From: Clostridiales bacterium
GTDB lineage: Bacteria; Bacillota; Clostridia; Christensenellales; CAG-138
NCBI GenBank assembly: GCA_015056105.1
Contig: SVGX01000004.1
Location: 1-49,738 of the forward strand
Direction of reading: 5' to 3'
Length of the DNA: 49,738 nt
A model generated the notes under the pieces. The model did no database searches. It was not told the origin of the DNA and saw only the letters and a program-made list of their open reading frames with translations. A program made the translations under genes and the position numbers. Shown here piece by piece: positions 1,497 through 30,994 of this stretch. The first letter of the stretch is position 1. Each line of letters opens with the position of its first letter.

Positions 1497-1515
1497 GATT
1501 GTGGTAAAATGTGTG

Positions 1516-1534
1516 CCGCAACCAACGGTTGCGG
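1516..1534. promoter_or_regulatory. Inverted repeat CCGCAACC-aac-GGTTGCGG, candidate operator of the downstream XRE regulator
   Basis: Perfect 8-bp arms; an extra GGTTGCGG half-site lies near 1581-1588, just before a TATGAT -10-like hexamer. Confidence 0.5.
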
Positions 1535-1640
1535 AGGGTTTCGGCCCGCTGAAAAGCGAAGTTGGTGGCGATGCAGCCCCGGTTGCGGCTATGATGAAAA
1601 CACCGAAAACAGGGCATTGCCATTGAAAGGACGGAAACGA

Positions 1641-2411
1641 ATGAATATTGAGATCGCAAACAGGCTGGTACAGCTCAGAAAGGCACACGGATATTCCCAG
1701 GAATCCCTTGCGGCGGCGCTGGGCATTTCCCGGCAGGCGGTGAGCAAATGGGAAAGGGCGGAATCCTCCCCGGAGCTTGAGAATGTGCTGGAACTTGCCC
1801 GCATTTACGGCATCACGCTGGATGCGCTGCTCAAAGGGGAGGCGGCAGCCGCGCCTGTGGAAGAAGCGGATACCACCGGACAGGCAGAGGAAACAGAGGC
1901 CGGTGCTTATCAAAAAGCAAATGCCGGCTATCCTGAAGCGAAGGCGGTTTATGAACAGGCGGAAGACATCCTGCAGGAAACGGATGGATACGATGCGGAA
2001 CAGGATGCGTGCATTGACAGCAGCGAAGAAGAGGACGGCAGCGGATCGTTCCGTTTTTCTGCCTCGCTGTACATTGATGACAGCGAAAACGGGAAGAAAG
2101 GCGCATGGCACGCGTTTCCTTACCCGATACTGACGGGGATCCTGTATCTTCTTGCGGGATTCCTTTTTGGAAAGTGGCTTGAAGGATGCCTGCTGTTCCT
2201 GACGGTACCCGTTTATTACAGCATCGCAAACTGGTTTGACGGCGGAAAAAAGGGCAGCTTTCTTACGGCGGTGCCCTATTCCGTCGTAACGGTGATCGTG
2301 TATCTGGTGGCGGGACTTTTCTTTGACGCATGGCATCCCACATGGCTTGTTTTTCTGACGATACCGCTTTATTATGCCGCTGCGGATGCTACGGCGCGGC
2401 GCAAAAAATAG
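1641..2411 (+). CDS. XRE-family HTH regulator with acidic linker and C-terminal transmembrane region
   Basis: LVQLRKAHGYSQESLAAALGISRQAVSKWERAESSPE HTH; start reassigned to ATG 1641 behind AAAGGA. Confidence 0.9.
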   Translation: MNIEIANRLVQLRKAHGYSQESLAAALGISRQAVSKWERAESSPELENVLELARIYGITLDALLKGEAAAAPVEEADTTGQAEETEAGAYQKANAGYPEAKAVYEQAEDILQETDGYDAEQDACIDSSEEEDGSGSFRFSASLYIDDSENGKKGAWHAFPYPILTGILYLLAGFLFGKWLEGCLLFLTVPVYYSIANWFDGGKKGSFLTAVPYSVVTVIVYLVAGLFFDAWHPTWLVFLTIPLYYAAADATARRKK

Positions 2412-4951: not shown

Positions 4952-5710
4952 TTATGAAAGCGGCGGCAGCAGTTTTATGCGGTATTCTTCTTCATCCCCA
5001 TAGGTATAGCCGATGTAACCGGGGATATCCGCCAGCTTATCAAGCAGAAAGGGATGATCCGCACAGCCGGAAAGCAGAAGGCGAATGCTGCCGTTTTTAT
5101 CGGGTGTAAGCAGGAACATGCGGGGTGTGCCATCGCTGTAAAACCCGAAGAGGGTAAAGGTGCCGTCCGCGTTGGTGATGTAAGTTCCTTCCTCCACAAG
5201 GCGGGAATCCGCATACAGGGAATATGTGCCGCAGCCATCTTCGTCAGGCCAATCCACAGCAAGGGAAAGGAAGAGAAAAGGCACGCTGCCTTCTTCCGGC
5301 TGATACTGATAGGTGCCCACAAGGGAGGGCGGTGCTTCCGCCCTAAGGAAAAGGAGGGGCAGCGCAATGAGCAGCACCACCGCAAGCGCCACAAGGAAAA
5401 CGGTACGCTGCTGCCGTTGATGTGCGCGCCGCTGGGCAAGGGTTTCTTCAAGCATATTTGCGGCAAGAGCTTCCACGGCGGCGGAGGGGGGCACTTCCTG
5501 CTGTTCACCGCCAAAGAGCGCTGCAACGGAAAGGGAGAGGGCATTGCATAGGGGCTCAACGAGGGAAACATCCGGAAAGCCTTTGCCCCGTTCCCACTTG
5601 GAAACAGTGGTATCGGAAATATGGAGAAGTGAGGCGAGCTGTTTTTGCGTGAGGGATTTTTCCCGGCGCGCGGATGCGATCAGCTCGCCTGTTTTTTCGT
5701 AGGTCTGCAT
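4952..5710 (-). CDS. XRE-family HTH regulator with one TM helix and an extracellular domain
   Basis: RREKSLTQKQLASLLHISDTTVSKWERGKGFPD; TM segment VFLVALAVVLLIALPLLFL; GGAGGT RBS. Confidence 0.9.
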   Translation of the reverse strand: MQTYEKTGELIASARREKSLTQKQLASLLHISDTTVSKWERGKGFPDVSLVEPLCNALSLSVAALFGGEQQEVPPSAAVEALAANMLEETLAQRRAHQRQQRTVFLVALAVVLLIALPLLFLRAEAPPSLVGTYQYQPEEGSVPFLFLSLAVDWPDEDGCGTYSLYADSRLVEEGTYITNADGTFTLFGFYSDGTPRMFLLTPDKNGSIRLLLSGCADHPFLLDKLADIPGYIGYTYGDEEEYRIKLLPPLS

Positions 5711-11765: not shown

Positions 11766-12866
11766 TCAGGCTTCGGGAGTATCATCTTCCCGGAATACGG
11801 GGGTGGGCGCTTCCGTTTCTACGTTTATCGCCACATCCATGGCTATATCGACGGAAGGATCGGCCTGAACGGGTGCGGACTGCGGCACAAAGGGCGGGAA
11901 GGAAGTGCCTTCAAGCCGGGCACGGGCATCGAAGTAAAGCACCGTGGCGATGGCGGGCTGGTACAGGGCCAGGAAGATGATCAGCCCGAGATAAAGAACG
12001 GTGACAAGGCTGATGGCAACGGCTGCCGCGGCGGCGGGCAGCAGCTCGCTGACGGCGACGACGGCGCCGAAAAGGAGTGCTGCTACGATGACGGCGCCGT
12101 TGATGATGAACATGCAGCCGACGACCCGGCCGAACCGCTTCCACACGAGCCTGATGCTGCGGCCCACGGCGGCAAAGTTTTTAAGGGGCTCATTTACCGC
12201 CACGGGGAATACGAAAAGCAGCAGGGAGCTTGCGACAACGGTGACGGCAAGCACGAGAAGATAGATAAATACAAAAGCGATAACGGCGCCGACGCCGAGG
12301 GAAGCACTTTCGCCCACAACGGCAAAAACGGAGCCGAACAGGACGAAGACCGTCATCACGCCGGTCAGAAGGCCCGTAACAAGGCTGACGGCGAAATTGA
12401 TGCCCCAGGCGGAAAGCAGATTGCAGAGGGTAGTGGTAAAAAAGCGCTTTAAGCTGTATTTGCTGCGGCGCAGCATTTGCCCGAGGGAACTTGCCCGCCC
12501 ATAAACACGGGCTGTCATTTCCCCGTAGACGGTACCCGAAACGATGGGTACGAACAGCAGCGAAAGAGCGAGGGCGGCGAGCATAACAAGGAACATGCCG
12601 CCGAGCAGGCCGGCGATAAAGGAAAGCACATCGCCGCCGGAAGCGGAGAAGGAAGAGGAGAAACCGTTGGAAGTGCCTTCAAGGGAAAACCCCGCAAGAA
12701 CGATGGCAAGGGTGCCGGGCAGCGGAAGGAGCAGCGCGAAAAGCAAGTACAGCACATGATACCCGGCAAGCGCACCGAGACGGCGGCGGACAAGCTGATT
12801 CGCGATGCCGAAGACGCCGCGCAGGGTCAGCGGGCGGATCACGATGGGGGGATAGGTTTTGAGCAT
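11766..12866 (-). CDS. Multi-pass membrane protein (glycerophosphodiester phosphodiesterase membrane-domain-like)
   Basis: About 6 TM segments, N-terminal IRPLTL and C-terminal LYFDARAR pattern; AGGAGG RBS before ATG 12866. Confidence 0.75.
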   Translation of the reverse strand: MLKTYPPIVIRPLTLRGVFGIANQLVRRRLGALAGYHVLYLLFALLLPLPGTLAIVLAGFSLEGTSNGFSSSFSASGGDVLSFIAGLLGGMFLVMLAALALSLLFVPIVSGTVYGEMTARVYGRASSLGQMLRRSKYSLKRFFTTTLCNLLSAWGINFAVSLVTGLLTGVMTVFVLFGSVFAVVGESASLGVGAVIAFVFIYLLVLAVTVVASSLLLFVFPVAVNEPLKNFAAVGRSIRLVWKRFGRVVGCMFIINGAVIVAALLFGAVVAVSELLPAAAAAVAISLVTVLYLGLIIFLALYQPAIATVLYFDARARLEGTSFPPFVPQSAPVQADPSVDIAMDVAINVETEAPTPVFREDDTPEA

Positions 12867-13029
12867 AAGCGCCACCTCCTGAAAGATAAATTGTCATTTA
12901 CAGTATACCACGAAAAAAGGAAAACACGCTACGCTTCCCGGGGAAAAACCCATGGCAAGGGGATGAAGATACTGTGGCAAACCGTGCCGTACTTTGCATG
13001 GATGCACATTTCGTGCACAAAATCCGCAC

Positions 13030-13058
13030 TTGATAGCAAACAAATGTTCTGCTAAAAT
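13030..13058 (+). promoter_or_regulatory. SigmaA promoter with a LexA-type (Cheo) box in the spacer
   Basis: TTGATA (13030-35), 17 bp, TG-n-TAAAAT (13053-58); AAAC-AAAT-GTTC at 13038-13049 matches GAAC-N4-GTTC with one mismatch. Confidence 0.75.
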
Positions 13059-13091
13059 GCAGACAGTGGATGCGTGGGCAACATGCATCCC

Positions 13092-13128
13092 GGCCGTTTA
13101 AGAAAAGCAAGCGGCTTTTTTATTTTTT
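13092..13128 (+). terminator. Terminator-like hairpin in the 5' leader of the virion operon
   Basis: GCCGTTT/AAGCGGC stem followed by TTTTTTATTTTTT; preceded by a second hairpin at 13068-13090. Confidence 0.6.
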
Positions 13129-13179
13129 GGCAGCGCCGGCCGGAACGGCGCAGCGCACGAAAGTGCGAAAGGAGGATAG

Positions 13180-13734
13180 ATGAACAAATCTGTACGAAAG
13201 CCCCTCAAGGAGGCGTTCGAGGAGAGGATGGCCCTTGAAGGCGCCGTGAAAAAGGTGCGGGAGGAGTACGAGAACAGCCCCGAATACCGCATCGGCTGTG
13301 AGCTCATTGACGGTCTGACGGAGGAGCTTGGCATTTCCGCCGAGCAGGCGGCGGAGATGCTTTCCGCCAAGGTACGCCCGAGCGGCGTGGATGTGCTTTC
13401 AAGCCGCGCGGCAGCCACCCTTGGTGAGATGGAGAAGCAGGGCGCGCTCAAGCGCCCCGCGAAAGCGTACCTTGAGGAAGCCGCTTTTGAAGCGCTGCTC
13501 AAAGAGCTGCCCGCGGCGGCAGCCATCCGTGTGTTTGATGCGGAAAACGCGCTGCAGCAGGCAGGGGCACAGGCGAACAGCGAAAGGGAGCAGGAGATCT
13601 ACGAGATGATCCGCGCCCAGCGGGCACTGCCCCGCCAGATGAAGCCCCAGGCACCCACCGCACAGAGCCCGGACTTCGGCCGCATGAGCAGCGAAGAATT
13701 CGAGCTTTTCAAGAAGCACTACTTTTCCCGCTGA
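13180..13734 (+). CDS. Putative capsid scaffolding protein
   Basis: Charged helical protein directly upstream of the capsid gene, ending in a PDFGRMSSEEF tail as seen in scaffold-position genes; function inferred from position. Confidence 0.6.
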   Translation: MNKSVRKPLKEAFEERMALEGAVKKVREEYENSPEYRIGCELIDGLTEELGISAEQAAEMLSAKVRPSGVDVLSSRAAATLGEMEKQGALKRPAKAYLEEAAFEALLKELPAAAAIRVFDAENALQQAGAQANSEREQEIYEMIRAQRALPRQMKPQAPTAQSPDFGRMSSEEFELFKKHYFSR

Positions 13735-13768
13735 CAAAAAACACTAAGAAAGGAAAGAAAAACAAACT

Positions 13769-14980
13769 ATGGCAAACAACATGACCAACACCACCAACAC
13801 CACTGTACCCGGTACCGGGCTCAATAAGACTTTTTTTGACAGGCAGCTGCTTGAAGGCGCCCGCACCCGCCTTGTGCATGCGGAATACGGCCAGAAGCGC
13901 GTGATCCCCCCGCACAACGGCAAAAGGGTGGAATTCCGCCGATGGAACCTGTTCGATATCGATGAAAACATGTGCGCCCTTTCCGAAGGCGTGACCCCCG
14001 ACGGTCAGACCCTTTCCCAGAGCATCGTGGAAGCGGAGGTAAGCCAGTACGGTGCCTTTGTGGAGGTTTCCGACCTGCTTGAACAGACCGCTTACGAGCA
14101 GGTGCTCAAGGACAGCGCGGAGCTTCTCGGCGAGCAGCTTGGCACCGTTGTGGAATGGGTGACCCGCGACGCCATGTGCTCCGGAAACAACGTGCAGCGC
14201 GCCGGCGGCAAGACCCTCCGCAGCGAGATCGAAGACAGCGACACCCTGACCGTCGATGAGATCCGCAAGGCGGTGCGCACCCTCAAGAAGGCCAAGGCGC
14301 GCCCCTTCGGCGGCAAAAACGGCAGGAAACAGCACTTTATCTGCATCTGTTCTCCCGATGCGACCTACGACCTGCAGAACGACCCCATGTGGCAGGATGT
14401 TTCCAAATATGCCGCCCATGAGCAGCTTTATACCGGTGAGATCGGTATGCTGTTCGGCGTGGTATTCGTGGAATCCACCGAAGCGAAGGTGATCCGCCAG
14501 GCGGTGCTGAGCAAGGTCGTTTCCCATGCCGGCGGCAGCGCAGTTCTGACCGTGGATGTGCTCAGCAAGGAGGGCGCGGCATTCCTCAACAAGGGCGGCG
14601 CAGTCATCAGCATCGGCGATCAGGAATATGCCGTCGCTTCCGCCGATGCGGAAAGCAAGACCATCACCCTTTCGGCGGCGCCCGGCAGCGCTTTTGCGGC
14701 GGGCACCCTTGTTTACAGCACCGAAGCGGGCAAGATGGATGAAACCACCAGGGCTGCGGCGGATGTGCACATGACCCTTGTGTTCGGCAAGGACGCTTAC
14801 GGCACCATCGACCTTTCGAGCGGCGGTGCTGTGACCACCATCATCAAGGGCCGCGGCAGCGCCGGCACCGATGATCCCCTTGACCAGCGTGCCACCGTCG
14901 GCGCGAAGGTGATGGGCTTCACCGCAGCCATCCTCAACGACCTCTGGCTGCTCCGCATCGAACACGGCGTCAGCGCCTGA
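13769..14980 (+). CDS. Major capsid protein, N4-gp56 family
   Basis: GKRVEFRR, LSEGVTPDG, QYGAFVEVSD, GEIGMLFGVVFVES and DPLDQRATVGAK motifs. Confidence 0.9.
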   Translation: MANNMTNTTNTTVPGTGLNKTFFDRQLLEGARTRLVHAEYGQKRVIPPHNGKRVEFRRWNLFDIDENMCALSEGVTPDGQTLSQSIVEAEVSQYGAFVEVSDLLEQTAYEQVLKDSAELLGEQLGTVVEWVTRDAMCSGNNVQRAGGKTLRSEIEDSDTLTVDEIRKAVRTLKKAKARPFGGKNGRKQHFICICSPDATYDLQNDPMWQDVSKYAAHEQLYTGEIGMLFGVVFVESTEAKVIRQAVLSKVVSHAGGSAVLTVDVLSKEGAAFLNKGGAVISIGDQEYAVASADAESKTITLSAAPGSAFAAGTLVYSTEAGKMDETTRAAADVHMTLVFGKDAYGTIDLSSGGAVTTIIKGRGSAGTDDPLDQRATVGAKVMGFTAAILNDLWLLRIEHGVSA

Positions 14981-14994
14981 CGGATATTTTTACG

Positions 14995-15028
14995 GGGGAA
15001 CGGCGGAAAAGCCGTTCCCTTTCCCTTT
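14995..15028 (+). terminator. Weak terminator or stem-loop after the capsid gene
   Basis: GGGAACGGC/GCCGTTCCC stem followed by an interrupted U tract. Confidence 0.65.
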
Positions 15029-15060
15029 GACCGAAAAAGATGATAAGGAGGAAATGAAAC

Positions 15061-15348
15061 ATGAAATACATGACCGACCGTGAGATCGATCAGCTCAGCG
15101 GCGAGGCGGGCGAGCGCCTTCGGAAGGAGAAGAAGGTCAGGATCCGCATTATGCCCCGTGAGGGCGGAACCAATACACCCTGGGAGGGTGGACTGAATGG
15201 CTGGTTTTTCCGCATCCCCCGCGGCATTCCCGTGGAGGTGCCGGAAAGCCTTGCAAAGCTGATCCGCGAAAACGAATGCACGGAGGCGCTTGCGAAGGAG
15301 AGGCTGCAGGAATACCGCGGCGGCCGCGGCAAGCGTCTTCGCGTATAA
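15061..15348 (+). CDS. Small phage protein of the type that follows N4-gp56 capsids
   Basis: GLNGWFFRIPRGIPVEVPESLAKLI resembles the NG..Y.I.RG..V.VP motif; AAGGAGG RBS. Confidence 0.7.
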   Translation: MKYMTDREIDQLSGEAGERLRKEKKVRIRIMPREGGTNTPWEGGLNGWFFRIPRGIPVEVPESLAKLIRENECTEALAKERLQEYRGGRGKRLRV

Positions 15349-15360
15349 GGAGGGGTTCGC

Positions 15361-15909
15361 GTGACGCTCAACGATATTATCGTTTCCGCCCTTGCACAGC
15401 TTGACCGCGGGCACGATGCGCAGACCCTTGACACCTGGCGTGACAAGTTCACCCGTTTTGCCAACGAAGCGGTGGTCGACCTCAGCGCCGCCTGGTGCCC
15501 CCGCCGCACGGAGGATTTTACCCTTTCGGGAAAGCTGCTCGACACGAGAAAGCTTCAAAGGGAATGCATCCGGGTACACGGGGTAAAGCGGCTTGGCCGC
15601 TATATGACGTTTTTTGAGACCGGCGACAGCGGCATTCTCTGCGTGCCCGGCGCAAAGGCGGACAGCGTGGTGCAGGTGAATTACCGCTTTGCGCCCCATA
15701 CCCTTTCGAGCACCAGCGATGTGCCGGAGCTGCCCGACTGGTGCCACGGGCTGATCGTCTGCTACGTGGTGGGCAGGGAGCGCGCCAGCGGCGAGGTAGG
15801 CATCCAGAGGGGCAGCAACATCTATTTTCAGATGTACGAAGCCGGAAAGGCCAGGCTGCGCCCCCACATGGGCGGTGCGGACAGCTACCGCATCCTGAAC
15901 AGGTGGTGA
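15361..15909 (+). CDS. Putative head-tail adaptor (podovirus-type)
   Basis: MTLNDII start, ANEA, and PELPDWCHGLIVCY motif; size and position fit an adaptor; AAGGAGG RBS with GTG start. Confidence 0.65.
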   Translation: MTLNDIIVSALAQLDRGHDAQTLDTWRDKFTRFANEAVVDLSAAWCPRRTEDFTLSGKLLDTRKLQRECIRVHGVKRLGRYMTFFETGDSGILCVPGAKADSVVQVNYRFAPHTLSSTSDVPELPDWCHGLIVCYVVGRERASGEVGIQRGSNIYFQMYEAGKARLRPHMGGADSYRILNRW

Positions 15910-15913
15910 TCCC

Positions 15914-17338
15914 ATGGCCCGCAGGATATACCGCATCGACGAATTTCACGGCATCGACCAATCCCGCAACGAAAACGCCATCGGTGCGGGCATGAGCCCG
16001 GATGCAGCCAATATGGATACGGAAAACGGCAGCCTGGCGGTGGCGGCGGGCTATGTCAGACACATCGATGCGCCCGTCCCCGGCGACGCGCCCCCTCACA
16101 GGCTGTTTCTTCACCGAAGAAAGGATGGGGATGTGTTCATCGCCATTGCGGGGGACACGGTCTACGCCTGCAGGGACGGCGTTTGGAAGGAGATCTATAC
16201 CTACGAAACGCCCCTTGCCGCCCACGAGTTTGATTTTGCGGAGGTGCAGATCGACAGCGTGGACCACCTTGTGATCGGCTGCGGGGAAAGGCAGCTCATC
16301 AAATACAACGGCAGCGAAGTGAGCCTTTTCGGCAGCGAAGAGGGACTTTCCAATGTGCACGTCCGCTACCTTGCCATGTACCGCAACAGGCTTTTTTCCG
16401 CGGGCGACAGCGAACACCCGAACCGGCTTTACTGGTCGCAGCTGCCCGGCAGCGGCAGAAGCATCGAAAACTGGGGCATTGTGGAGGCTTCCCCCAACGT
16501 GGAGGGCGGCCACACGGAGGTGGGAGATACGGGCGGCGACCCCATCACGGGGCTTGCGGCCCTTTCCAACCAGCTGCTGATCTTCAAACAGCACGAGATA
16601 TACCGGCTTCTTGGCGATAGACCCGGCAATTACATCGTAGAAAAGGTGGAATCCCGGGGCGAGACGCCCGCCCATACGGCGGTGGTGCCTTCCGGCGATG
16701 CCCTTTATTACATGACGAAAAGCGGCCTTTGCTGCTTTAACGGTGTGAGCGCCGCACCCATGGGTGACGCAAGGCGCATCCGCACCATCCTTTCGGATGC
16801 GGACACCTCCCGCTCGAAGGGCGCCATCTGCGCGGACAAGCTTTATTTTACCCTTCAGCAAAGCGGCGGCAGCGCGGTAGCCGTATACGACCTTGTGCGG
16901 GGCGCATACATGATGCGAAACGGCTTTACCGCCCACGATGTCTGCGCCAGGGGAGATACCCTTTACATCCTTAACGGCAAGCGGCATGTTTGCCGCTTCG
17001 GCGAGGGCCGCACCTACGACGGCATTCCCATTGCGGCCCATTGGCAGACGCCCCTTACGGATCTGCACGAGAAGGGGTGCGTCAAATGCATGCGGGAGCT
17101 TTACCTGCGCGGCAGCAGCGAATTGCCCGATTCCGTGATCCTGATGGATATGACGGTGGGCAAAAACACCGCCGCGCACCGCATCCGCGTGCCGGATACC
17201 CGGGATGAGGTGTCGGAAGTGCCCCTTGTAAACGAGGGACGCACATTCTCCATGCGCTTTTACAACGAGGCGGGCGGGCACTTTGTGATAGAGGCGGGCA
17301 TAGAGCTGATGTTCGATGAACGGAGGCGAAGCGAATAA
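15914..17338 (+). CDS. Putative tail nozzle/hub protein (P22 gp10 / T7 gp12-like beta-propeller)
   Basis: FHGID...DAANM start, YRNRLF, NRLYWS, GDPITGL...LLIFK, ALYYMTKSG propeller-type motifs; follows the adaptor. Confidence 0.7.
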   Translation: MARRIYRIDEFHGIDQSRNENAIGAGMSPDAANMDTENGSLAVAAGYVRHIDAPVPGDAPPHRLFLHRRKDGDVFIAIAGDTVYACRDGVWKEIYTYETPLAAHEFDFAEVQIDSVDHLVIGCGERQLIKYNGSEVSLFGSEEGLSNVHVRYLAMYRNRLFSAGDSEHPNRLYWSQLPGSGRSIENWGIVEASPNVEGGHTEVGDTGGDPITGLAALSNQLLIFKQHEIYRLLGDRPGNYIVEKVESRGETPAHTAVVPSGDALYYMTKSGLCCFNGVSAAPMGDARRIRTILSDADTSRSKGAICADKLYFTLQQSGGSAVAVYDLVRGAYMMRNGFTAHDVCARGDTLYILNGKRHVCRFGEGRTYDGIPIAAHWQTPLTDLHEKGCVKCMRELYLRGSSELPDSVILMDMTVGKNTAAHRIRVPDTRDEVSEVPLVNEGRTFSMRFYNEAGGHFVIEAGIELMFDERRRSE

Positions 17339-17523
17339 TGGCACTTGATATGCGCGCGCTCTATTATATTGCGCTGCCCACGGGCGCGCTCCGGGAGGAG
17401 AACAAACAGACCTATACGGAGCGGGTGAAGGCAAACGAAAACTGCATGAACCAGAATTTTACCATACTGGCGCAGAAGATCGCAGAACTGGAGGCGCGGC
17501 TTGCCGCGCTTGAAAACGAATAA
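17338..17523 (+). CDS. Small coiled-coil phage protein
   Basis: TAATG translational coupling; C-terminal heptads KIAELEARLAALE. Confidence 0.7.
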   Translation: MALDMRALYYIALPTGALREENKQTYTERVKANENCMNQNFTILAQKIAELEARLAALENE

Positions 17524-17540
17524 AGGAAGGAGAACACACT

Positions 17541-18488
17541 TTGGCAAGTTATTATGTTTTGGAGGGCTACACCACGCCCGCCGGCGTCGACAGCCGGCAA
17601 AAGGTGAAGGATTACCAGAAACAGCTTGGCGTACGGGCGGACGGCATCTGGGGACCGGAGACGCAGGCGGCATACAATGCTTCCGGCATGGGAAATACCA
17701 CGGAGCGCTGGGGTTTGCTGCACGGCAGCAGCTACGGCACCGGCGCAGCGAACACCTTCGGCGCATTTTACAACGATGCCCTTTCGATGCTCGGCACGCC
17801 GTCCATCCATGTGAACACCCCCTCAAGGGCATCCATCGAAAAGGATATTGCCGCATCATTGCGCCCGGCGACGGAGCAGGCCATTGATGCGCGAAGGGAC
17901 CAGGCGGAGACCAACATGGCAGAGCTTGATGCGGACGCCGCATCCCGCGGCATGGGCGCTTCCACCTATGTGACCAGCATGAAAGGCAGGGAACTGAGCA
18001 GGAGCGAAAGCGATGTGGCGATGATGGAATCCAACTATTCCGCCGCCCTTGCGGAACGCGTGGCAAACTATCTGCAGTACTATGCCAACCTGGAGTTTCA
18101 GGCGGCGATGCAGAATGCGCAGCTTCGCACCAACGCGCAGAATGCGGCTGCAAGCCTTGCATCGCAGTGGTACGCCGCATACCTTGCGGCAAACGCCGCG
18201 AACAGCAGCGGCGGCAGCGGAAAGAGCGGCAGCAGCGCTGCGGATAACAAAGAATACTTCAGCATGACGGCGGACGAATACGAAGCTTTTGTGCGGGGCA
18301 TGAGCAGCAGTGAGCTGCTGGAGCTCTTCAATTCGAAAGATGCTTACTGGCAGGACAGCCGCGACGAGCTTTACGATGCGCTCGGCAGCAGCCGCTACAG
18401 CGCGCTTGAAAGCAGTCTGAACCCCGTTAAGAAAAAAACGTCGGGCTTGAGCGGAAAGGAAGGCACATGGGTGAGAGAGAAGTATTAA
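17541..18488 (+). CDS. Putative internal virion/ejection protein with N-terminal peptidoglycan-binding-like motif
   Basis: VKDYQKQLGVRADGIWGPETQAAY resembles PG_binding_1; Ala/Ser/Gln-rich helical middle; TTG start after AAGGAAGGAG. Confidence 0.6.
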   Translation: MASYYVLEGYTTPAGVDSRQKVKDYQKQLGVRADGIWGPETQAAYNASGMGNTTERWGLLHGSSYGTGAANTFGAFYNDALSMLGTPSIHVNTPSRASIEKDIAASLRPATEQAIDARRDQAETNMAELDADAASRGMGASTYVTSMKGRELSRSESDVAMMESNYSAALAERVANYLQYYANLEFQAAMQNAQLRTNAQNAAASLASQWYAAYLAANAANSSGGSGKSGSSAADNKEYFSMTADEYEAFVRGMSSSELLELFNSKDAYWQDSRDELYDALGSSRYSALESSLNPVKKKTSGLSGKEGTWVREKY

Positions 18489-19402
18489 AACGCTTTGAAG
18501 TTGCCCTTGATATCAGCCGATCCATTTCAAACCGCGCTTTTACGGTGGTGGAAGGCGATACGGGCAACCTTCTGCACATTACCCTTACCGACAACGGCAT
18601 GCCGGTGGACCTCACCGGCTGCCGTGTGCTGGCGGTCTTTTCAAAATCCAACGGCACCTCCTCCCAGGACAGCGGCGTGGAAGAAGGCGGCGTGAGCCTT
18701 GGCGGCAAAAGCGGGAACGAGGTGACCATCTCCCTTTTCAACAGCTCTTTCGCACCGGGCATGGTGGAATGTGAACTGCAGGTGTATTCCGGAGAGGACC
18801 GCATGACCCTTGTGACGAGCGCAAAGTTCAATTTCAACTGCAGGCGCGGCATACTCAACGGGGAAACGGTACAATCCACCGGCGATTATCCGGTGCTTGT
18901 GGCGCTGATCGCCGAGACGGAAAAAGCGGCGGCGGCAGCCTATGCGGCTGCTGCCGCCACAGGACAGGCTGCCCATGCATCGCGCCATGCAGCAGGCGGC
19001 ACAGACCCCCTGACGCCTGCAGCCATCGGTGCGGCCACGGCGGAGCACACGCACGCACCCGCAACCATCGGTGCGGCCGCAGCGGAGCATACGCACACGC
19101 CTGCTGCCATCGGTGCGGCCGCAGCACCCATCATTGCCGCAAACGTTGCGGTGGAACTGAGCTGTTGGGCGGACGATGCCACCTTCGCTGCATACCCTTA
19201 CCGGGCGGCGGTTCCTGTGAGCGCCGCAAAAGAAGGAATGTATGCATATGTATCCTTCGACGCTGCGGAATCCGACAGCGGCGCTTACGCAAAGCAGACA
19301 GCGGCGTATGAAGGCGGCGTTTACATCTATGCCAATGCACTGCCTGCAACGACCATCACGCTGTTGACGGTGCTGCTGATCCCCGTTGGAGGTGCCGTAT
19401 GA
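18467..19402 (+). CDS. BppU/DUF2479-like fibre-anchoring protein with His-x-His repeats
   Basis: VVEGDTGNLLHITLTDNGMPVDLTG...F.KSNG...GMVECELQVY...TSAKFNF; HASRHAAGGTDPLTPAAIGA and HTH repeats. Confidence 0.8.
   Translation: MGEREVLKRFEVALDISRSISNRAFTVVEGDTGNLLHITLTDNGMPVDLTGCRVLAVFSKSNGTSSQDSGVEEGGVSLGGKSGNEVTISLFNSSFAPGMVECELQVYSGEDRMTLVTSAKFNFNCRRGILNGETVQSTGDYPVLVALIAETEKAAAAAYAAAAATGQAAHASRHAAGGTDPLTPAAIGAATAEHTHAPATIGAAAAEHTHTPAAIGAAAAPIIAANVAVELSCWADDATFAAYPYRAAVPVSAAKEGMYAYVSFDAAESDSGAYAKQTAAYEGGVYIYANALPATTITLLTVLLIPVGGAV
19013..19126 (+). repeat. 42-bp tandem repeat, about 2.7 copies
   Basis: CCATCGGTGCGGCC recurs at 19023, 19065 and 19107; encodes PAAIGAAxAEHTHx. Confidence 0.9.
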
Positions 19403-19791
19403 TCTTTGGCATGACAAACGCAGGCGCAGGCGGCGGATTGAAGCTTGTGACGGGCAGTTTCACTTCGAGTAACACGGAAACCCAGGAAAAGTTTACTGTA
19501 TCCGGTCTTACCTTTGAACCGAAAATCGTTGCCATCAGGCGCACAAGCCTCACCGATGGAGATGCTGTCGGCGGTAACAACATGCTGATTTGTGCATTTT
19601 CCGATCTTGAGACAAACATAGGCTTTTGCGGATACGGCATTTCAGGTTCTGGCACGGTGAAAACATCGAGTGCTTTGACGGTATCGGGCTGCAATGGTAC
19701 ATATACCGTAACTTCGTCAACGTATCCCTTTTCCTATGTTGCTTTCGGCAAAGCGAACTATGGCAAATACACATATTACATCTACGGATAA
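19399..19791 (+). CDS. Putative tail-fibre tip / receptor-binding subunit
   Basis: ATGA coupling; Gly-rich N-terminus (GAGGG); Thr/Ser/Tyr-rich; visibly more AT-rich than its neighbours. Confidence 0.55.
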   Translation: MIFGMTNAGAGGGLKLVTGSFTSSNTETQEKFTVSGLTFEPKIVAIRRTSLTDGDAVGGNNMLICAFSDLETNIGFCGYGISGSGTVKTSSALTVSGCNGTYTVTSSTYPFSYVAFGKANYGKYTYYIYG

Positions 19792-19803
19792 GGGGTGAAC
19801 GGC

Positions 19804-20136
19804 ATGGCATTTGTGAGGTGGGTATTTTATGACACCGAAGGCAATGTGAAATATGAAGGCATGCAGGAAGGCAGCTTCCGCCATATCCCTGCGGCGGATG
19901 TGGCGGCATCCTTCGGACTGACGGATGTAAGGTGCATGGAATGGCGGCAGAAAGATCCTGCCGTTGAAGCGGCGTTTGCCGACACAGATGAGAACGGGGC
20001 GCTCCGGCACGTGGAGGTGTCCGTGGACGTGAGCGGAAACGAACCGAAACTCGTGTTTGCCTACACGCCCGTGGAGGAGACGGAAAGGGATGACCCCTAT
20101 GCGATCATTGATATTCTGACAGGAGGTGAAGCCTGA
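19804..20136 (+). CDS. Hypothetical phage protein (possible fibre assembly factor)
   Basis: Acidic small ORF in the fibre module, ending IIDILTGGEA, coupled to the next gene. Confidence 0.65.
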   Translation: MAFVRWVFYDTEGNVKYEGMQEGSFRHIPAADVAASFGLTDVRCMEWRQKDPAVEAAFADTDENGALRHVEVSVDVSGNEPKLVFAYTPVEETERDDPYAIIDILTGGEA

Positions 20137-20564
20137 TGGCAGTAAGGACTATGGAAGAAGCCCGTGCATGGCGGGCAAGGATGGAGAACCTGACGAAGGA
20201 AGCAACGGATGCGACCGCTTCCACCATGCCGGAAGCCTTTCCGAAGCTGAAGGGTGACGGAAGCCTTGTAAGGGCCGGTACCCGCATCAACTGGCATGGC
20301 ATGCTGAAGCGTGCTGCCGCAGACCTGTGGGACACGGCGGAAAACACGCCGGAAAATGCGCCCTCGCTGTGGGAGGATATCGACTATAGGGACGGCATCC
20401 GCATCATCCCCGATTTGATCACAGCGGGCACGGCCTTCCAAAAGGGTGAACTTGGCTGGTGGGGCGATGCTGTTTATCGCTCCGTGCATGACGGCGCAAA
20501 CGTGTGGACGCCCGAAGAGTATCCTGCCGCATGGGAAAAAGCGGAGGAGGAAGGTGATGTATGA
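20136..20564 (+). CDS. Phage protein with a CBM5/12-like tryptophan module
   Basis: PENAPSLWEDI, FQKGELGWWGDAVYRS...NVWTPEEYPAAWE. Confidence 0.7.
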   Translation: MAVRTMEEARAWRARMENLTKEATDATASTMPEAFPKLKGDGSLVRAGTRINWHGMLKRAAADLWDTAENTPENAPSLWEDIDYRDGIRIIPDLITAGTAFQKGELGWWGDAVYRSVHDGANVWTPEEYPAAWEKAEEEGDV

Positions 20565-21265
20565 TGCAGGGCTTTCTTGAATATTTGAAGGAACAGGTGG
20601 GCCGCTCCGTATATGTATGGGGCGGCCAGGGGGAGACGGAGATCACAGAAAAGTGGGTCCGCTCCCGGGAAAACAAGGAGGCAAATATCCTTCGGGTAAT
20701 GCGCTTTTACGAAGGCCTGCGATCAAAGGGGATATCTCCCATCCGGGCATACGATTGCAGCGGGCTGATCCTCCATTACTGGCAGGACAGGGTGGGTTTT
20801 TTCACATCGGATATGACGGCAGCCGGGCTTTTCCGGCTCTGCACGGCCCTTGAAAAGACAGCGCTGCAGCCGGGCGATCTTGTGTTTCGCCATAACGGCA
20901 CAGCCATTCACCATGTGGGTGTCTATATGGGCGACGGACAGGTGATCGAAGCGGAGGGAAGAGACAGAGGCGTTGTGGAGCGGCATATCGACGCGGGCGG
21001 AACAGGATACTGGAACCGCTTCGGCAGGCCGCCTTTTTTTGACCTCAAAAAGACGGATGACAGCTGCTTTGCCCGGGTGAAGGGCGATTCTGTGAACCTC
21101 AGGGCAGGCCCGGGGACGGAATATCCCATCGTAACGGTAACGCACCGCGGCGATCCGCTGCTTGCCCGGGCGGAACGGGAAGGCTGGTGTGAAACGGCGG
21201 CCATCGCCGGCGGCAAGATGCAGCGGGGCTACATGAGCGCAAAATATATCGAAAGAAACAAGTGA
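20561..21265 (+). CDS. Endolysin: NlpC/P60 peptidase with C-terminal SH3b domain
   Basis: YVWGG, YDCSGL, PGDLVF, HHVGVYMGDGQVIEA; SH3b VNLRAGPGTEY...GW...GYMSAKYI. Confidence 0.9.
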   Translation: MMQGFLEYLKEQVGRSVYVWGGQGETEITEKWVRSRENKEANILRVMRFYEGLRSKGISPIRAYDCSGLILHYWQDRVGFFTSDMTAAGLFRLCTALEKTALQPGDLVFRHNGTAIHHVGVYMGDGQVIEAEGRDRGVVERHIDAGGTGYWNRFGRPPFFDLKKTDDSCFARVKGDSVNLRAGPGTEYPIVTVTHRGDPLLARAEREGWCETAAIAGGKMQRGYMSAKYIERNK

Positions 21266-21278
21266 AAGGAGGGAGAGT

Positions 21279-21692
21279 ATGGAACGGATCGCGGACATTC
21301 TGAAACTTGCTGCGGCGGCGGCCGGCGCGGCGGCTTCTTATCTTTGGGGCCCCTTTGATGCGCTGATCTTGACGCTTGTGGCGGTGGTATGCATCGACTA
21401 CATCACGGGGATCGTAAAGGCGGTCATCCTTAAGGAGCTTTCGAGCGGCGTCGGATTTCGCGGGCTTCTTAAGAAGATGTTCATCTTTGCACTGGTGGCC
21501 CTTGCAACGGTCATCGATGGGATGATCCCCGCCGCAAAGGATGCCATCCGCACGGCGGTGATCGGCTTTTATGTGGCGAACGAGGGCATCAGCATCCTTG
21601 AAAACGCGGGCGCTATCGGGCTTCCCATGCCGAAGGCGCTCAAAGGCGCCCTTGAAAGGCTGCAGGAAGCCGGAGAAAATGCGCAAGAGTAA
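21279..21692 (+). CDS. Holin (Phage_holin_4_1, toxin secretion/phage lysis family)
   Basis: IDYITG, LSSGVGFRGLLKK, FYVANEGISILENAGAIGLPMP. Confidence 0.93.
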   Translation: MERIADILKLAAAAAGAAASYLWGPFDALILTLVAVVCIDYITGIVKAVILKELSSGVGFRGLLKKMFIFALVALATVIDGMIPAAKDAIRTAVIGFYVANEGISILENAGAIGLPMPKALKGALERLQEAGENAQE

Positions 21693-21785
21693 GGCGGTTT
21701 TGCGGCGAATGCACTTGTGTTCCCCGCGGGATTGGTCTTATAATAATTGAAAACAACGCAAACACAGCGGGCGGAGGAACAGCCA

Positions 21786-22715
21786 ATGCAGCAGCGGCAG
21801 CGCATCTTAACGGAATACAGGGCAAAACGGCAGGCGGCCATCGCTGCGGCGGCGGAAAACCGCGCCAAAGCGGAAGCGAAGCTGCCGCGTCTTCGCGAGA
21901 TCGAAGAGATGCAGCGGCGCCTTGCCTTTGCGCTTGGCCTGAAGCTTGTGACGGCTGCCGACAAGGATGCTGTGCGAAAGGATACCGAGACGCAGATCGC
22001 TGCCCTTGAACGGGAGGCGGAACTGCTGCTTGCGGATCACGGCATCGCCCCGGAAAGCCTTAAACCCCGGTTTGAATGTGAAATCTGCGAAGACACAGGC
22101 TTTGTGGGAGCGGAAAAACAGCCCTGCGCCTGTTTCAAAAAACGGCTGCTGCAGGCGGAATACGCATCCTCCGGCCTGGCGGAAAATGCCCGGTTCGCCC
22201 TTTTTGACGAAAGCATTTATCGGGATGAGACCCAGAAAAAACGCAGCCTCAAGGCAAAGCGCATTTTGGAGGAATATGCGCAAACACTTTCCTTCAACGA
22301 TGCAAAGGGGCTGATGCTGCTTGGCGCGGTAGGCGTGGGCAAGACCTTCCTTCTTGACTGCGTGGGCCATGCGGCCATGGAAAATGGGTTTACGGTAAAA
22401 AAATACACCGCGTACAATCTTGTCGATCGGATGCTGCAGGGCATCCGGGAGCGGGAAAGCGGCCTTGCGGCGCTGACAAAGCCTGATCTTCTGCTTATCG
22501 ATGATCTCGGCACGGAGCCCTTTATCCAGAACATCACATACGAAGGGCTTTTCGGCATTGTGAACGAAAGGCAGAATGCGGGCAAAGCCACTGCCATCGC
22601 CACGAACCTTTCCCCCAAAGAGATACTTGACGCATATGGCGAAAGACTGTTTTCAAGGCTCACATCCCCCCGGCTTTTCACGGTACTGGAACTCAAAGGG
22701 GAGAGCCTCCGCTGA
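21786..22715 (+). CDS. dnaC: DnaC/DnaI-like helicase-loader ATPase with zinc finger
   Basis: CEICEDTG...CAC zinc site, Walker A GAVGVGKT, LLLIDDLGTE, ATNL, YGERLFSRL; GGAGG RBS before ATG 21786. Confidence 0.88.
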   Translation: MQQRQRILTEYRAKRQAAIAAAAENRAKAEAKLPRLREIEEMQRRLAFALGLKLVTAADKDAVRKDTETQIAALEREAELLLADHGIAPESLKPRFECEICEDTGFVGAEKQPCACFKKRLLQAEYASSGLAENARFALFDESIYRDETQKKRSLKAKRILEEYAQTLSFNDAKGLMLLGAVGVGKTFLLDCVGHAAMENGFTVKKYTAYNLVDRMLQGIRERESGLAALTKPDLLLIDDLGTEPFIQNITYEGLFGIVNERQNAGKATAIATNLSPKEILDAYGERLFSRLTSPRLFTVLELKGESLR

Positions 22716-22721
22716 AAAGAG

Positions 22722-22769
22722 AAAGAAAAACGGAACCGTTTTTGACGGTTCCGTTCTTTTTTTGTTTTT
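22722..22769. terminator. Bidirectional intrinsic terminator
   Basis: AACGGAACCGT/ACGGTTCCGTT stem with A and T tracts. Confidence 0.9.
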
Positions 22770-22775
22770 GGAGTT

Positions 22776-23339
22776 TTAAGGATCCACCCGGAATGTATAC
22801 TGCGCCGTACCGAGATCATACACCGCATCGATCACATACAGGCAGGGGAGATCTTCCTCCGCAATATAAAGGCTGACGCTTTCCCCTACATCGCGGATCA
22901 CAGCGGGAACGCCTTCGCCATAGCTGCCGGAGAGACATTCCTCTTCGCTGTAGCGGCGGAGTGTGAAGCTTTCAAGGGTGTGGTAAAAGCTGAAGGTGAT
23001 TTTCCCTTCCGTTTTTCCCGCTTCGATGCGGGCAAGCCATTCTTCATTGAAGGAGGCGGCGGGATGGTCTCCGCAGGCGATGGCGGAGGCGGATGTCTCA
23101 TCATCCACCGGGTATTCCCATTCATAGGCGCCAAGGGTTGCATAGGTGCAGCTTGCCACTTCGCCGTAAACGGTGGCAAGGCCAACATTGGGCGGTGACG
23201 GCAGCGGATCGGCACTGCCTGCCCAGGCGATCTCCGCCGTGGCTTCCGTTGTTGTTTCCGCTGCCGGACAGCTTTCTGTGTGCGCACAGGCGGAAAGGTA
23301 CAGCGGCAGAACGAGCAGCAGGGCAAGAAATCGTTTCAT
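22776..23339 (-). CDS. Hypothetical lipoprotein
   Basis: MKRFLALLLVLPLYLSAC lipobox; GGAGGT RBS. Confidence 0.75.
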   Translation of the reverse strand: MKRFLALLLVLPLYLSACAHTESCPAAETTTEATAEIAWAGSADPLPSPPNVGLATVYGEVASCTYATLGAYEWEYPVDDETSASAIACGDHPAASFNEEWLARIEAGKTEGKITFSFYHTLESFTLRRYSEEECLSGSYGEGVPAVIRDVGESVSLYIAEEDLPCLYVIDAVYDLGTAQYTFRVDP

Positions 23340-23401
23340 GAAGAGACCTCCCGAAAAGTCAGTGTTGCCAATAACACGGGCGAAGGAAGAAAAAGGTTGC
23401 G

Positions 23402-24598
23402 TCAATCTTCGAGAAGATCGATGCCGATGGCGGCAAGTTCCGCATCGGAATAGGTGCGTTTTTTGTGATTGTGCGCCTTTGCAAGGCCGCTCTTCTTTTC
23501 GATGCTCTGCCCCTTTTCTTCCTTCTGTTTAAAGGTTTCCGCCTGCGCCACGGTGGCAACGCCCGCATCGTGCCAGGCGGTGAGAAGCTTTTTGATATTC
23601 CCGAAGGGCTGGGAAGATTCCCGGGAAAGATCCGCGGCATAAAGGATGAGCTCCGCGCTCATATGCCATGTTTCGTGCCATGTCTCGATTTGTTCTCGCT
23701 GGGAAAGGGTGGGGGTGCGTTTAAGCCCTGCCCGGGCGAACACCATGCGCGCAAGCTCTTCGGAAGCATCCCGGGCTTTTCTGAGCGCCGCGGCGGCTTC
23801 TTCCGTAATGACGCCGTTCATGCGGTATGTGGCGAGGATGGAATCAAGGTATTTGAAGCTGGGCTGGGCGCTCGATGTGGCATCGGCACAGGCATCGAGG
23901 ATGACGGATTCATCAAAACCCCATTCTTCCACCCACTTGGCGTAAAGGGCAAGCTCATCTTCCGTGGCGGCGCGGCTGCGCTTCCACCGCTGCAGGATGC
24001 GCTGTGCGCCGGCGCAGCGCTGCCGCTCCCGCGCAAAAAAGCGCTCCGCTTCCTCTGCGGTAACGACACCCGCGTTGGCAAGGCGCTTTGCGGCGTTGTT
24101 GAGCTGCCACATCTTCGCCCGGGTGCCGTACCTTGCAAGGCATTCCCTGACGCAGAGCACGGCCGCCGCTTCCTCAAAGCGAAAGGTCTCGATCCAATCG
24201 TAGATCTCGGAAAGCTCATAGCCGGAGAACATCCTTGTGCCTGCCGCATCCTGCAGCGCCGCCACAAGGGAAGCGTATTTGCGGGGCGCATCAGCCGGGG
24301 GGGCACCTGCGGCGCCCACGGGCAGGTATTCGACGGTAAGGGGATCTTCCGCCGCTACGTGGACAAGGCCCGCCGTCTGCCAATAGGCGAAAGCTTTTGC
24401 GACAGCTGCCGCATCCACGCCGAGGATGCCGCCAATATCGAGCGATGCCGCTTCCTTGCCGGGCACGGCGGAAAGCATGAGACCGAGAAGATAGACCTTC
24501 ACATGGCCTTCCGGGGCTTTCGGCATATGCTCCGTCAAAAAGATATTGCTGACGGCGGTAACATCAAGAAGCGGGGCGCGCTTGAGAAAAACGGACAT
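23402..24598 (-). CDS. dnaD: DnaD/DnaB-domain replication protein
   Basis: VSNIFLTEHMPKA...VKVYL N-terminus; three DnaD-like repeats (W..EWGF...I..A, FKYLDSIL, IKKLLTAWHDAGV). Confidence 0.85.
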   Translation of the reverse strand: MSVFLKRAPLLDVTAVSNIFLTEHMPKAPEGHVKVYLLGLMLSAVPGKEAASLDIGGILGVDAAAVAKAFAYWQTAGLVHVAAEDPLTVEYLPVGAAGAPPADAPRKYASLVAALQDAAGTRMFSGYELSEIYDWIETFRFEEAAAVLCVRECLARYGTRAKMWQLNNAAKRLANAGVVTAEEAERFFARERQRCAGAQRILQRWKRSRAATEDELALYAKWVEEWGFDESVILDACADATSSAQPSFKYLDSILATYRMNGVITEEAAAALRKARDASEELARMVFARAGLKRTPTLSQREQIETWHETWHMSAELILYAADLSRESSQPFGNIKKLLTAWHDAGVATVAQAETFKQKEEKGQSIEKKSGLAKAHNHKKRTYSDAELAAIGIDLLED

Positions 24599-28515: not shown

Positions 28516-28545
28516 ATTTTATCACGGATACGGTGGGAGCGTCAA
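28516..28545 (-). promoter_or_regulatory. SigmaA promoter for riboswitch-mntP
   Basis: TTGACG, 18 bp, TG-n-TAAAAT just upstream of the aptamer. Confidence 0.7.
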
Positions 28546-28910
28546 CCGGGAACCGCCCTGAGCGTGCCGGTTTCATCGGTTTCGAGCAGGATGCGGACAG
28601 GCCCCTGCGAGAAATCGCAGGCAAAGGTTTCTTCAAACAGCGGCCGGCCCATATCTGCTCCCGCACCGCCGTACGCGGAAAGGGTGAACTCCGTTTCTTT
28701 TTCCGGCAGGGAAAAAAGAAAACATTCGTTCTCTTCAAGGGCGGAATTGTTCGCATTCTGGGCAACGGCAGTCTCGTGTTCCCGGGAAACGGCAAGGGAG
28801 AAAATGCCCTTCACATTGCCGATCTCCACGGTGAGGTTGCTCTGCACGGGACTTTTTGCCGCGCAGGCGGAAAGAAGCAGCGGCAAAAGAAGAAGGAAAA
28901 GCCGTTTCAT
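28542..28910 (-). CDS. Hypothetical lipoprotein
   Basis: MKRLFLLLLPLLLSAC lipobox; GAGGT RBS. Confidence 0.75.
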   Translation of the reverse strand: MKRLFLLLLPLLLSACAAKSPVQSNLTVEIGNVKGIFSLAVSREHETAVAQNANNSALEENECFLFSLPEKETEFTLSAYGGAGADMGRPLFEETFACDFSQGPVRILLETDETGTLRAVPG

Positions 28911-28919
28911 GCGGGTACC

Positions 28920-30317: not shown

Positions 30318-30532
30318 CAGGCTTCCTCCTCATCGGGAATGAATTCGAGAATATCGGCTACGGAGCAGGAAAGGATGCGGCAGAGGGCATCAAGGGTGGA
30401 AAAGCGGATGGCTTTGCCCTTGTTGGTTTTGAGTATGGAAAGGTTTGCCGGTGTGATGCCCAGCTTTTCCGCCAGCTCCAGAGAGGACATGCCCCGCTTT
30501 GCCAGCATGATATCAAGGTTGACGCGGATCAT
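30317..30532 (-). CDS. YozG-type XRE HTH regulator
   Basis: LAEKLGITPANLSILKTNKGKAIRFSTLDALC. Confidence 0.93.
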   Translation of the reverse strand: MIRVNLDIMLAKRGMSSLELAEKLGITPANLSILKTNKGKAIRFSTLDALCRILSCSVADILEFIPDEEEA

Positions 30533-30544
30533 GGTGTTTCCTCC

Positions 30545-30994
30545 TTATATGGTTAGATCGTTTTCCGCCTTGTATTCGACAGCACGGCGAAATACCGCTG
30601 CCAGTACCAGCGCAAACATGCCCGCCAGCAGCATCACGATGGCACAGACCGCTGTCATGGGGGTGAAGCTTAAAAAGCAGCGGCCTACAAACAGTAAACC
30701 TGCCAGCTCTGCGGCGGCACCCATGCGGAGAAAGGCCTTTACGTTGCGCTCAAGGAAGGGATCATCGGTCACGGTGCGGAACACGAAGAAAAGCTCAAAA
30801 AGGATCCACAGTGCAAAGGCGGCGGCAAGGGTAAGGAATACCTTGAGCGTGGCAACGCTGCCCTCCCAGTAGCCTGCAAGAGCTTCGCCCCAGCGGCTGC
30901 CGGGGATATAAAAGAGCACAAGGCAGAACACGACGAACAGGATGAGTAGGATAAGCATGCCCTCGGTGATACGACAAAGGAGCTTGGTGGACAT
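30545..30994 (-). CDS. DUF2975 membrane protein
   Basis: PF...NVKAF and C-terminal AVEYKAENDLTI; characteristic pairing with YozG. Confidence 0.9.
   Translation of the reverse strand: MSTKLLCRITEGMLILLILFVVFCLVLFYIPGSRWGEALAGYWEGSVATLKVFLTLAAAFALWILFELFFVFRTVTDDPFLERNVKAFLRMGAAAELAGLLFVGRCFLSFTPMTAVCAIVMLLAGMFALVLAAVFRRAVEYKAENDLTI

Follow-up and report, generated by a model that had tools for sequence, protein, structure and literature searches.

Is particle production by a phage-derived gene cluster in a gut clostridial bacterium governed by LexA, the repressor of the host's own response to DNA damage (SOS)? The question is raised by a 49,738-nucleotide stretch of DNA, hereafter the window, which is the whole of contig C17 (SVGX01000004.1) from the genome of an uncultured Clostridiales bacterium (GCA_015056105.1; 1.81 Mb in 88 contigs, 55% G+C and 86.6% completeness). 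The window carries an operon of phage head, tail and lysis genes (13180–22715), and a preliminary description of the sequence had noticed a LexA-like box between the hexamers of its promoter and concluded that virion production is wired directly to the SOS regulon of the host. We consider it likely that the box, AAACAAATGTTC at 13038–13049, is a working LexA operator gating the head, tail and lysis operon of a domesticated, podovirus-derived particle system; DNA damage would then probably switch particle production on. LexA binding, the start site, damage induction, read-through of the leader and the function of the particle are all points that we infer from sequence.

The box in the virion promoter

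The promoter of the operon lies at 13030–13058 on the plus strand, exactly where it had been described, and consists of a −35 hexamer TTGATA (13030–13035), of which the TTGA is invariant across four sequences of the genus, and an extended −10 element TGcTAAAAT (13050–13058, with the TG at 13050–13051 and TAAAAT at 13053–13058), which is likewise conserved in the genus, separated by a 17-base spacer. It matches 10 of 12 consensus positions in addition to the TG. Promoter-like matches as such are about as frequent here as in shuffled sequence (one found versus 1.0 expected in the region around the promoter, four versus 3.8 expected over 12800–23500); among them 13030–13058 is the only one to combine 10 of 12 positions with the TG. 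It is also the only near-consensus promoter of the sigma-70 type before the operon, and further promoter-like sites were not found between it and the first gene (13180). From the position of the −10 element, transcription is predicted to start at 13065–13066 on the plus strand; a search for RNA runs spanning 12900–15000 returned none. The predicted LexA (Cheo-type) operator occupies 13038–13049, within the span first noted and with its coordinates corrected here, and sits in the spacer between the hexamers as had been proposed. Its reverse complement has the form GAAC-N4-GTTT, a clostridial form of the LexA operator that the published text gives for both lexA and recA of C. difficile (PMC4234289), and with the start site placed as predicted it overlaps the core promoter, as is expected of LexA operators.

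The bare GAAC-N4-GTTC pattern is not rare in this genome, so the box was tested against operators taken from its own lineage. A 14-base matrix, in which the A/T-rich spacer and the flanks are scored as well, was trained on 24 distinct sites from lexA and recA promoters of relatives, with no sites from the window's own genome or from phage-like clusters; one recA training site (2.4 bits) was removed as an outlier before the final matrix. With this matrix AAACAAATGTTC scores 19.2 bits (training range 15.7–21.9), the highest value in the 1.81-Mb genome, in which 20 sites reach at least 13 bits. Scoring with a LexA matrix had been proposed as a check on the box, and with the relatives' lexA and recA sites as the standard the box stands above background. 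Matrices of 12–16 bases place it first to third in the genome. High-scoring sites in which both outer positions are changed were left unassigned; they occur ahead of a gene for an ABC permease, within one for a histidine kinase and between LysR and dehydrogenase genes.

In all three congeners for which the region is available (G001, G002 and G003) the orthologous position holds a perfect GAAC-N4-GTTC, so that the conservation before orthologous clusters on which the earlier proposal turned is found. The −35 and −10 elements are kept in these promoters and four spacer bases vary, while the DNA upstream hardly aligns among the three genomes, and the synonymous divergence of the adjacent genes between the window and its congeners is about 0.5–1. 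Of the other congeners, G005 has a contig end that cuts off this region, and the assembly of G004 yielded no capsid locus orthologous to that of the window.

Operators of similar form precede the SOS genes of the genus itself. GAAC-N4-GTTT lies 82–85 bases before lexA in all four congeners with that gene, and GAAC-N4-GTTA overlaps the recA −10 element in all five; a box with at most one mismatch precedes 19 of the 28 lexA loci examined and 11 of 17 recA loci in the family. In this genus one half-site thus usually departs from the consensus at its outermost base, and the apparent mismatch in the window box is a normal operator form. Exact boxes also lie between the −35 and −10 elements of two Y-family (IMS) polymerase genes in the window's own genome (C22:30279 and C55:2151), the same design as in the window. 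Among the top-scoring annotated sites, no box of at least 13 bits precedes a recognisable excision-repair gene; with so few repair-gene boxes, the predicted SOS regulon looks small. This comparative evidence supports the window box as probably a real LexA operator.

Twelve bases upstream of the −35 hexamer lies an inverted repeat, TGCAC-N5-GTGCA (13003–13017), which is identical in G001 and of which only the left arm is present in G002 and G003. It is a possible site for a second regulator.

A second locus and the origin of the proposed control

Besides the window box, a scan of the genome found three exact boxes in promoter positions, two of them at the polymerase genes and the third on contig C32 (27989–31560), where it stands before genes for a 188-residue sigma-like regulator, a large terminase and a P22/SU10-type portal. 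The C32 genes supply the packaging functions that the window cluster lacks, Pfam and PHROG annotation having detected no terminase, portal, integrase or repressor in it. On C32 the box stands downstream of the promoter and ahead of the ribosome site of the 188-residue gene, and it is kept in all five genus genomes that have the terminase; the element supplies two of the four clearly promoter-placed high-scoring boxes in the genome. Neither an integrase nor a repressor was detected beside either locus, and the C32 locus, like that in the window, has host-gene flanks.

The 188-residue protein looks, on weak matches, like a phage regulator of the sigma-region-4 type. It matches phrog_36 ('transcriptional regulator', 2e-06) and, weakly, TIGR02937 (E 0.0095); Sigma70_r4_2 is found in four of nine homologues (best E 1.8e-04, below the curated cut-off), and its atlas neighbours fall in DUF1492/Sigma70_r4 clusters (0.95–0.97). 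A fold search with its model (predicted local distance difference test score 77.8) returned nothing at E ≤0.001, with extracytoplasmic function sigma factors heading the list, and a sequence search against solved structures gave nothing significant. Open reading frames (ORFs) downstream of the portal gene have no Pfam or PHROG match. An inverted repeat, GTACC-N6-GGTAC, lies about 30 bases upstream of the −35 element of this locus and is largely conserved in five genus genomes.

Both parts of the element are widespread in the family, capsid and terminase each occurring in 33 of 36 other genera and sporadically in other families of the order. The terminase, portal, capsid and remaining genes are contiguous in many genera and split in the window's genus and its nearer relatives. 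Across 12 genomes capsid and terminase identity tracks RecA identity (Spearman 0.72 and 0.56, respectively; none of 2000 Mantel permutations as high), and the ratio of non-synonymous to synonymous substitution rates, measured against G001, is 0.07–0.31 compared with 0.11 for the neighbouring pepF, consistent with purifying selection. The window cluster is flanked by host genes (pepF and a membrane protein gene on one side, an M1 peptidase gene on the other) in a synteny held throughout the genus. On all these grounds the cluster looks domesticated, and here the preliminary description, which had argued for domestication and pointed to the lack of a local repressor, is supported on both counts. 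Terminase matches with in-frame stops were seen in five genomes (G001, G002, G025, G008 and G015); for G001 and G002, where the open frame comes close to the query in length, the stop is probably located before the actual start.

LexA-type boxes at this element extend beyond the genus. Sites of at least 14 bits precede the packaging genes in 14 of 31 relatives. The start of a separate capsid operon is preceded by such a site in 4 of 30 (the three congeners, plus G010 with a weak one), a figure to be read in the light of many of the 30 capsid loci being of the contiguous type, i.e. with no separate operon start. In G025 a perfect core box overlaps the −35 element and scores below 14 bits. Operon-start windows hold 21 sites in 61 kb versus 3 in 500 kb elsewhere, a count in which some loci overlap and a few sites enter twice. 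As points against the LexA reading, 17 of the 31 relatives have no box before the packaging genes, and most split-type genera have none before the capsid operon.

How such control would have arisen is a separate matter. That the host has taken over particle production, as first suggested, fits the signs of domestication, and it is one of two directions the evidence allows: boxes are also found at distant terminases, where 5 of 14 more distant homologues from other families, including second, more divergent copies, have sites of at least 15 bits within 1.4 kb upstream. The phage lineage may thus have depended on LexA from early on. It is quite possible, if not the explanation we favour, that LexA control is real and was inherited from a phage ancestor, in which case the LexA link says nothing about domestication: a podovirus lineage with no repressor of its own would have used host LexA as its switch, and the element may be a long-resident remnant. 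The boxes before packaging genes in other members of the family and the lack of a repressor gene beside both loci are as this explanation would have them, and there is a precedent in GIL01 of Bacillus thuringiensis, for which host LexA together with gp7 is described as the lysogeny repressor (PMC4551915). The capsid-promoter box, however, is confined to the window's genus, and the nearest split-type genera have consensus promoters with no box; the boxes of G025 and G010 stand at other promoter positions, suggesting repeated later gains, and the host flanks, two-locus split, purifying selection and tracking of RecA fit domestication instead.

A wider interpretation can be put forward tentatively. 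The element would be a family-wide, vertically inherited, podovirus-derived gene transfer agent (GTA) absorbed into the host SOS regulon, each dispersed locus with its own LexA operator, the capsid-operon operators having arisen more than once (three promoter positions in three genera); on damage, a subpopulation would lyse and host DNA would be packaged, serving transfer or recombinational repair.

The leader terminator and the remaining alternatives

In the mechanism we propose, a LexA dimer on the window box would block RNA polymerase in the undamaged cell; upon DNA damage RecA would be activated, LexA would cleave itself and the promoter would open. The perfect box on C32 would open simultaneously, giving the regulator, large terminase and portal, so that both dispersed loci would answer one signal. 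Window transcripts would then meet a terminator in their leader, and read-through may be partial or aided by a factor such as the sigma-like protein. The terminator, perhaps with the sigma-like protein, would set a threshold or delay.

The leader is predicted to be highly structured. In the minimum-energy fold a first hairpin (13066–13091) is followed by an intrinsic terminator (13092–13128; stem 13092–13099/13109–13116, a 9-base loop and a T-run to 13128) and by two further conserved hairpins just before the ribosome site (13133–13151 and 13153–13167), all on the plus strand. The fold of 13064–13185 has an energy of −47.7 kcal/mol (z −3.85), and none of 200 shuffled sequences was equally stable. 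In an alignment of four genus sequences, three of five pairs in the terminator stem change on both sides yet stay paired and the T-run is invariant, while in the two downstream hairpins six pairs are invariant (13133–13151) and one is compensatory (13153–13167). Of 14 genomes with a start of the scaffold gene, 10, other split-type genera among them, have a promoter and then a terminator-like hairpin ahead of that gene, as judged by a home-made detector run without a shuffle control. No Rfam family reached its gathering score in the window, and matches over 12880–13200 were at chance level (E 0.43 or worse).

The conserved terminator implies an undescribed second layer of control. It lies about 50 bases after the predicted start, between promoter and first gene, and so tells against a simple LexA switch, in that derepression alone might yield mostly short RNA. 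Because the transcripts have to get past this terminator, release of LexA is probably required and would not be enough alone. The earlier claim that the operon is wired directly to the SOS response therefore stands as far as the LexA-type box in the promoter, and falls short at 'directly', the leader terminator and a LexA-boxed sigma-like regulator intervening.

Pressed further, the same observations could mean that the main product of the promoter is a short leader RNA (about 55–65 bases) under LexA control that ends at the terminator, and that antitermination or activation, rather than LexA here, decides virion expression, a reading that we regard as possible but less likely. The stable fold and the compensatory changes speak for it, as do the recurrence of the promoter–terminator layout in several genera that lack a LexA box there and the presence of a sigma-like regulator at the LexA-boxed second locus. 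An alternative anti-terminator pairing was not identified, however, and the leader resembles no Rfam family; with no promoter downstream of the terminator, initiation of the operon would still depend on the LexA-boxed promoter.

Several observations weigh against the box being an operator at all. The genome holds 19 exact copies of GAAC-N4-GTTC and 48 copies of the window box's one-mismatch form, with no excess at a spacing of 4 over other spacings. The training sites of the matrix were themselves chosen by likeness to GAAC-N4-GTTC, and with an 18-base matrix AAACAAATGTTC ranks only 9th–15th in the genome (14.0–15.6 bits), because one flank base, part of the TGn motif, is absent from all training sites. 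Among the four genus sequences the window box is the sole departure from the perfect palindrome. Finally, neither lexA nor recA was found in the 86.6%-complete assembly; canonical lexA is present in four of five congeners and recA in all five, the two genes lying on one contig about 12–13 kb apart in G001, G002 and G004, so one missing piece may explain both absences. Given the number of copies, the rank on the 18-base matrix and the lone departure from the palindrome, the box could be a chance or decaying match, in which a G-to-A change inactivated the operator and left the promoter constitutive or otherwise controlled. We think this improbable: the changed position also varies in the lexA and recA operators of the genus, the score on the independent 14-base matrix is the highest in the genome, contigs from three public metagenome runs carry letters identical to those of the window box (a fourth run gave no cover), and leaving a lysis operon unrepressed would burden the cell. 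Binding by some other SOS-cleavable repressor, such as the 218-residue protein with an XRE-family helix-turn-helix (HTH) and an S24 peptidase domain that is the sole LexA-like match in the assembly, LexA-like only in its C-terminal half (C71:11838–12194, minus strand, with similar genes in most relatives), is very improbable, as domains of the XRE type usually recognise different sequences, the motif is that of the standard LexA operator of Bacillota and in this lineage precedes lexA, recA and genes for Y-family polymerases, and most congeners have a canonical LexA.

The element and its known counterparts

The operon of the window comprises 13 plus-strand genes with short gaps. Its ribosome site (AGGAGG) and first ATG (13170–13182) belong to a 184-residue protein (13180–13734) with no significant family, assigned to the scaffold by position only, directly before the capsid gene as in relatives. 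The major capsid protein follows (13769–14980; phrog_1357 major head protein 4e-66, PF13252 3.8e-10), then a conserved 95-residue protein with no family, which adjoins the adaptor gene across the family (15061–15348), an SU10 adaptor-like head–tail adaptor (15361–15909; PF24175 1.6e-06, above its cut-off) and a 474-residue virion structural protein (15914–17338; phrog_3287 3.8e-14, phrog_511 2.9e-13). Further along are a 315-residue protein with an N-terminal peptidoglycan-binding domain (17541–18488; PF01471 1e-05), a 311-residue BppU_N protein of the baseplate or receptor-binding type (18467–19402; PF10651 8.1e-06) and three small ORFs of 130, 113 and 142 residues, conserved in the genus and with no significant family (19399–20564). 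Lysis functions are represented by a cell-wall hydrolase, or lysin, with NlpC/P60 and SH3 domains (20561–21265; PF00877 8.1e-13, PF08239 1.2e-07) and a holin (21279–21692; PF05105 1.5e-38, phrog_199 2e-25). The last gene encodes a DnaC/IstB-like ATPase (21747–22715; PF01695, phrog_50 7.5e-35, NF005304 205 bits versus a cut-off of 215), the element's one replication-type gene, and the transcription unit ends at a strong two-way intrinsic terminator (22729–22755) with a stem of 12–14 pairs and T-runs on both strands. Among isolated phages, podophages of Bacillus megaterium have the closest capsids (about 36% identity). Unannotated 'Bacteriophage sp.' contigs of 6.5–22 kb from human faecal viromes encode capsids 35–44% identical to that of the window and may be related elements or their packaged DNA.

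Divergent from the operon, on the minus strand, is a 369-residue ORF (11766–12875) with a probable ATG at 12866 behind a GGAGG-type ribosome site. It has a weak Pfam match only (GPDPase_memb, E 0.0025) and no PHROG, is syntenic with the cluster in the genus only, and is likely a membrane protein that is not part of the phage-derived element. Two XRE-family HTH genes (1509–2411, plus strand; 4952–5710, minus strand) lie 8–11 kb upstream of the cluster with host genes between, and nothing was seen to connect them with the element. At 28720 a LexA-like site of 15.5 bits falls inside a small minus-strand gene with a lipoprotein-type signal peptide (28542–28910) and was set aside as probably due to chance; given that gene, the overlapping 779-residue ORF on the plus strand (28533–30872) is at least partly spurious.

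Were LexA to gate both loci, a global repressor of the host would coordinate dispersed loci of a domesticated virus, and the trigger could be tested with mitomycin C or quinolones, gel shifts and particle sequencing. DNA-damaging drugs would then be linked to bulk mobilisation of DNA and lysis in ruminant and human gut communities, and if the element is indeed a GTA within the SOS regulon, SOS-inducing drugs and diet would be tied directly to gene flow in the gut.

Making particles or toxins in response to SOS induction, together with lysis of the producing cell, would be a feature shared with PBSX of Bacillus subtilis and with colicin and pyocin operons. PBSX is myovirus-like and has its own Xre repressor; colicin operons are directly LexA-repressed, and colicins differ from the window element in not being phage particles. 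The GTA of Rhodobacter capsulatus (RcGTA) has an indirect need for LexA, and we know of no LexA operators before the structural genes of RcGTA or the Caulobacter GTA. Both resemble the window element as multi-locus, vertically inherited, domesticated particle systems tied to host global regulation, and the Caulobacter GTA is described as aiding survival after DNA damage (PMC9632790). They differ in being siphovirus-like and alphaproteobacterial, with activators of the GafA/GafYZ type in the published accounts (PMC6363796, PMC9638019). In the open-access literature we found no LexA operators described before structural genes of GTAs or domesticated prophages.

Closer parallels come from two Bacillus elements. 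SigN (ZpdN) is the sigma-type regulator of the cryptic prophage-like element pBS32 of B. subtilis, its LexA-repressed promoter being documented with a lexA mutant and gel shift and DNA damage leading to cell death (PMC6751061). The second locus of the window element would be arranged alike, with a LexA-boxed sigma-type gene in the lead, although its sigma-like assignment comes from weak matches; the structural operon of pBS32 is described as SigN-insensitive and not LexA-boxed (PMC6751061), whereas that of the window has its own LexA box. GIL01 likewise has LexA boxes in a phage promoter and encodes no CI-type repressor in the account given. It is, however, a tectivirus maintained as a replicating linear plasmid prophage, in which LexA acts at the early lysogenic promoter and needs a phage co-factor; in the window element the boxes stand before structural and packaging operons, and the element is chromosomal and non-replicating.

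The nearest counterpart is FpGTA of Faecalibacterium, with which podovirus-like GTA-like particles of gut Clostridia were first described in 2026, in a report that also notes GTA-like packaging in Christensenellaceae (PMC12946183) and outside which we found no mention of FpGTA in the open-access literature. Its main text contains neither 'LexA' nor 'promoter' and no operator analysis, leaving the regulation of such particles unanalysed there. FpGTA and the window element are both chromosomal, phage-derived particle systems of gut Clostridia with two loci, an affinity to short-tailed phages and near-ubiquity in the host group. FpGTA particles are reported to carry host DNA fragments of about 9 kb (PMC12946183); the comparison with the window element covers gene content and layout, and packaging of host DNA by the latter is hypothetical. 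The split itself is drawn differently: terminase, portal, scaffold and capsid form one part of FpGTA, and tail, receptor-binding, holin and lysin genes the other (PMC12946183), whereas in the window element the scaffold and capsid genes are grouped with those for tail and lysis.

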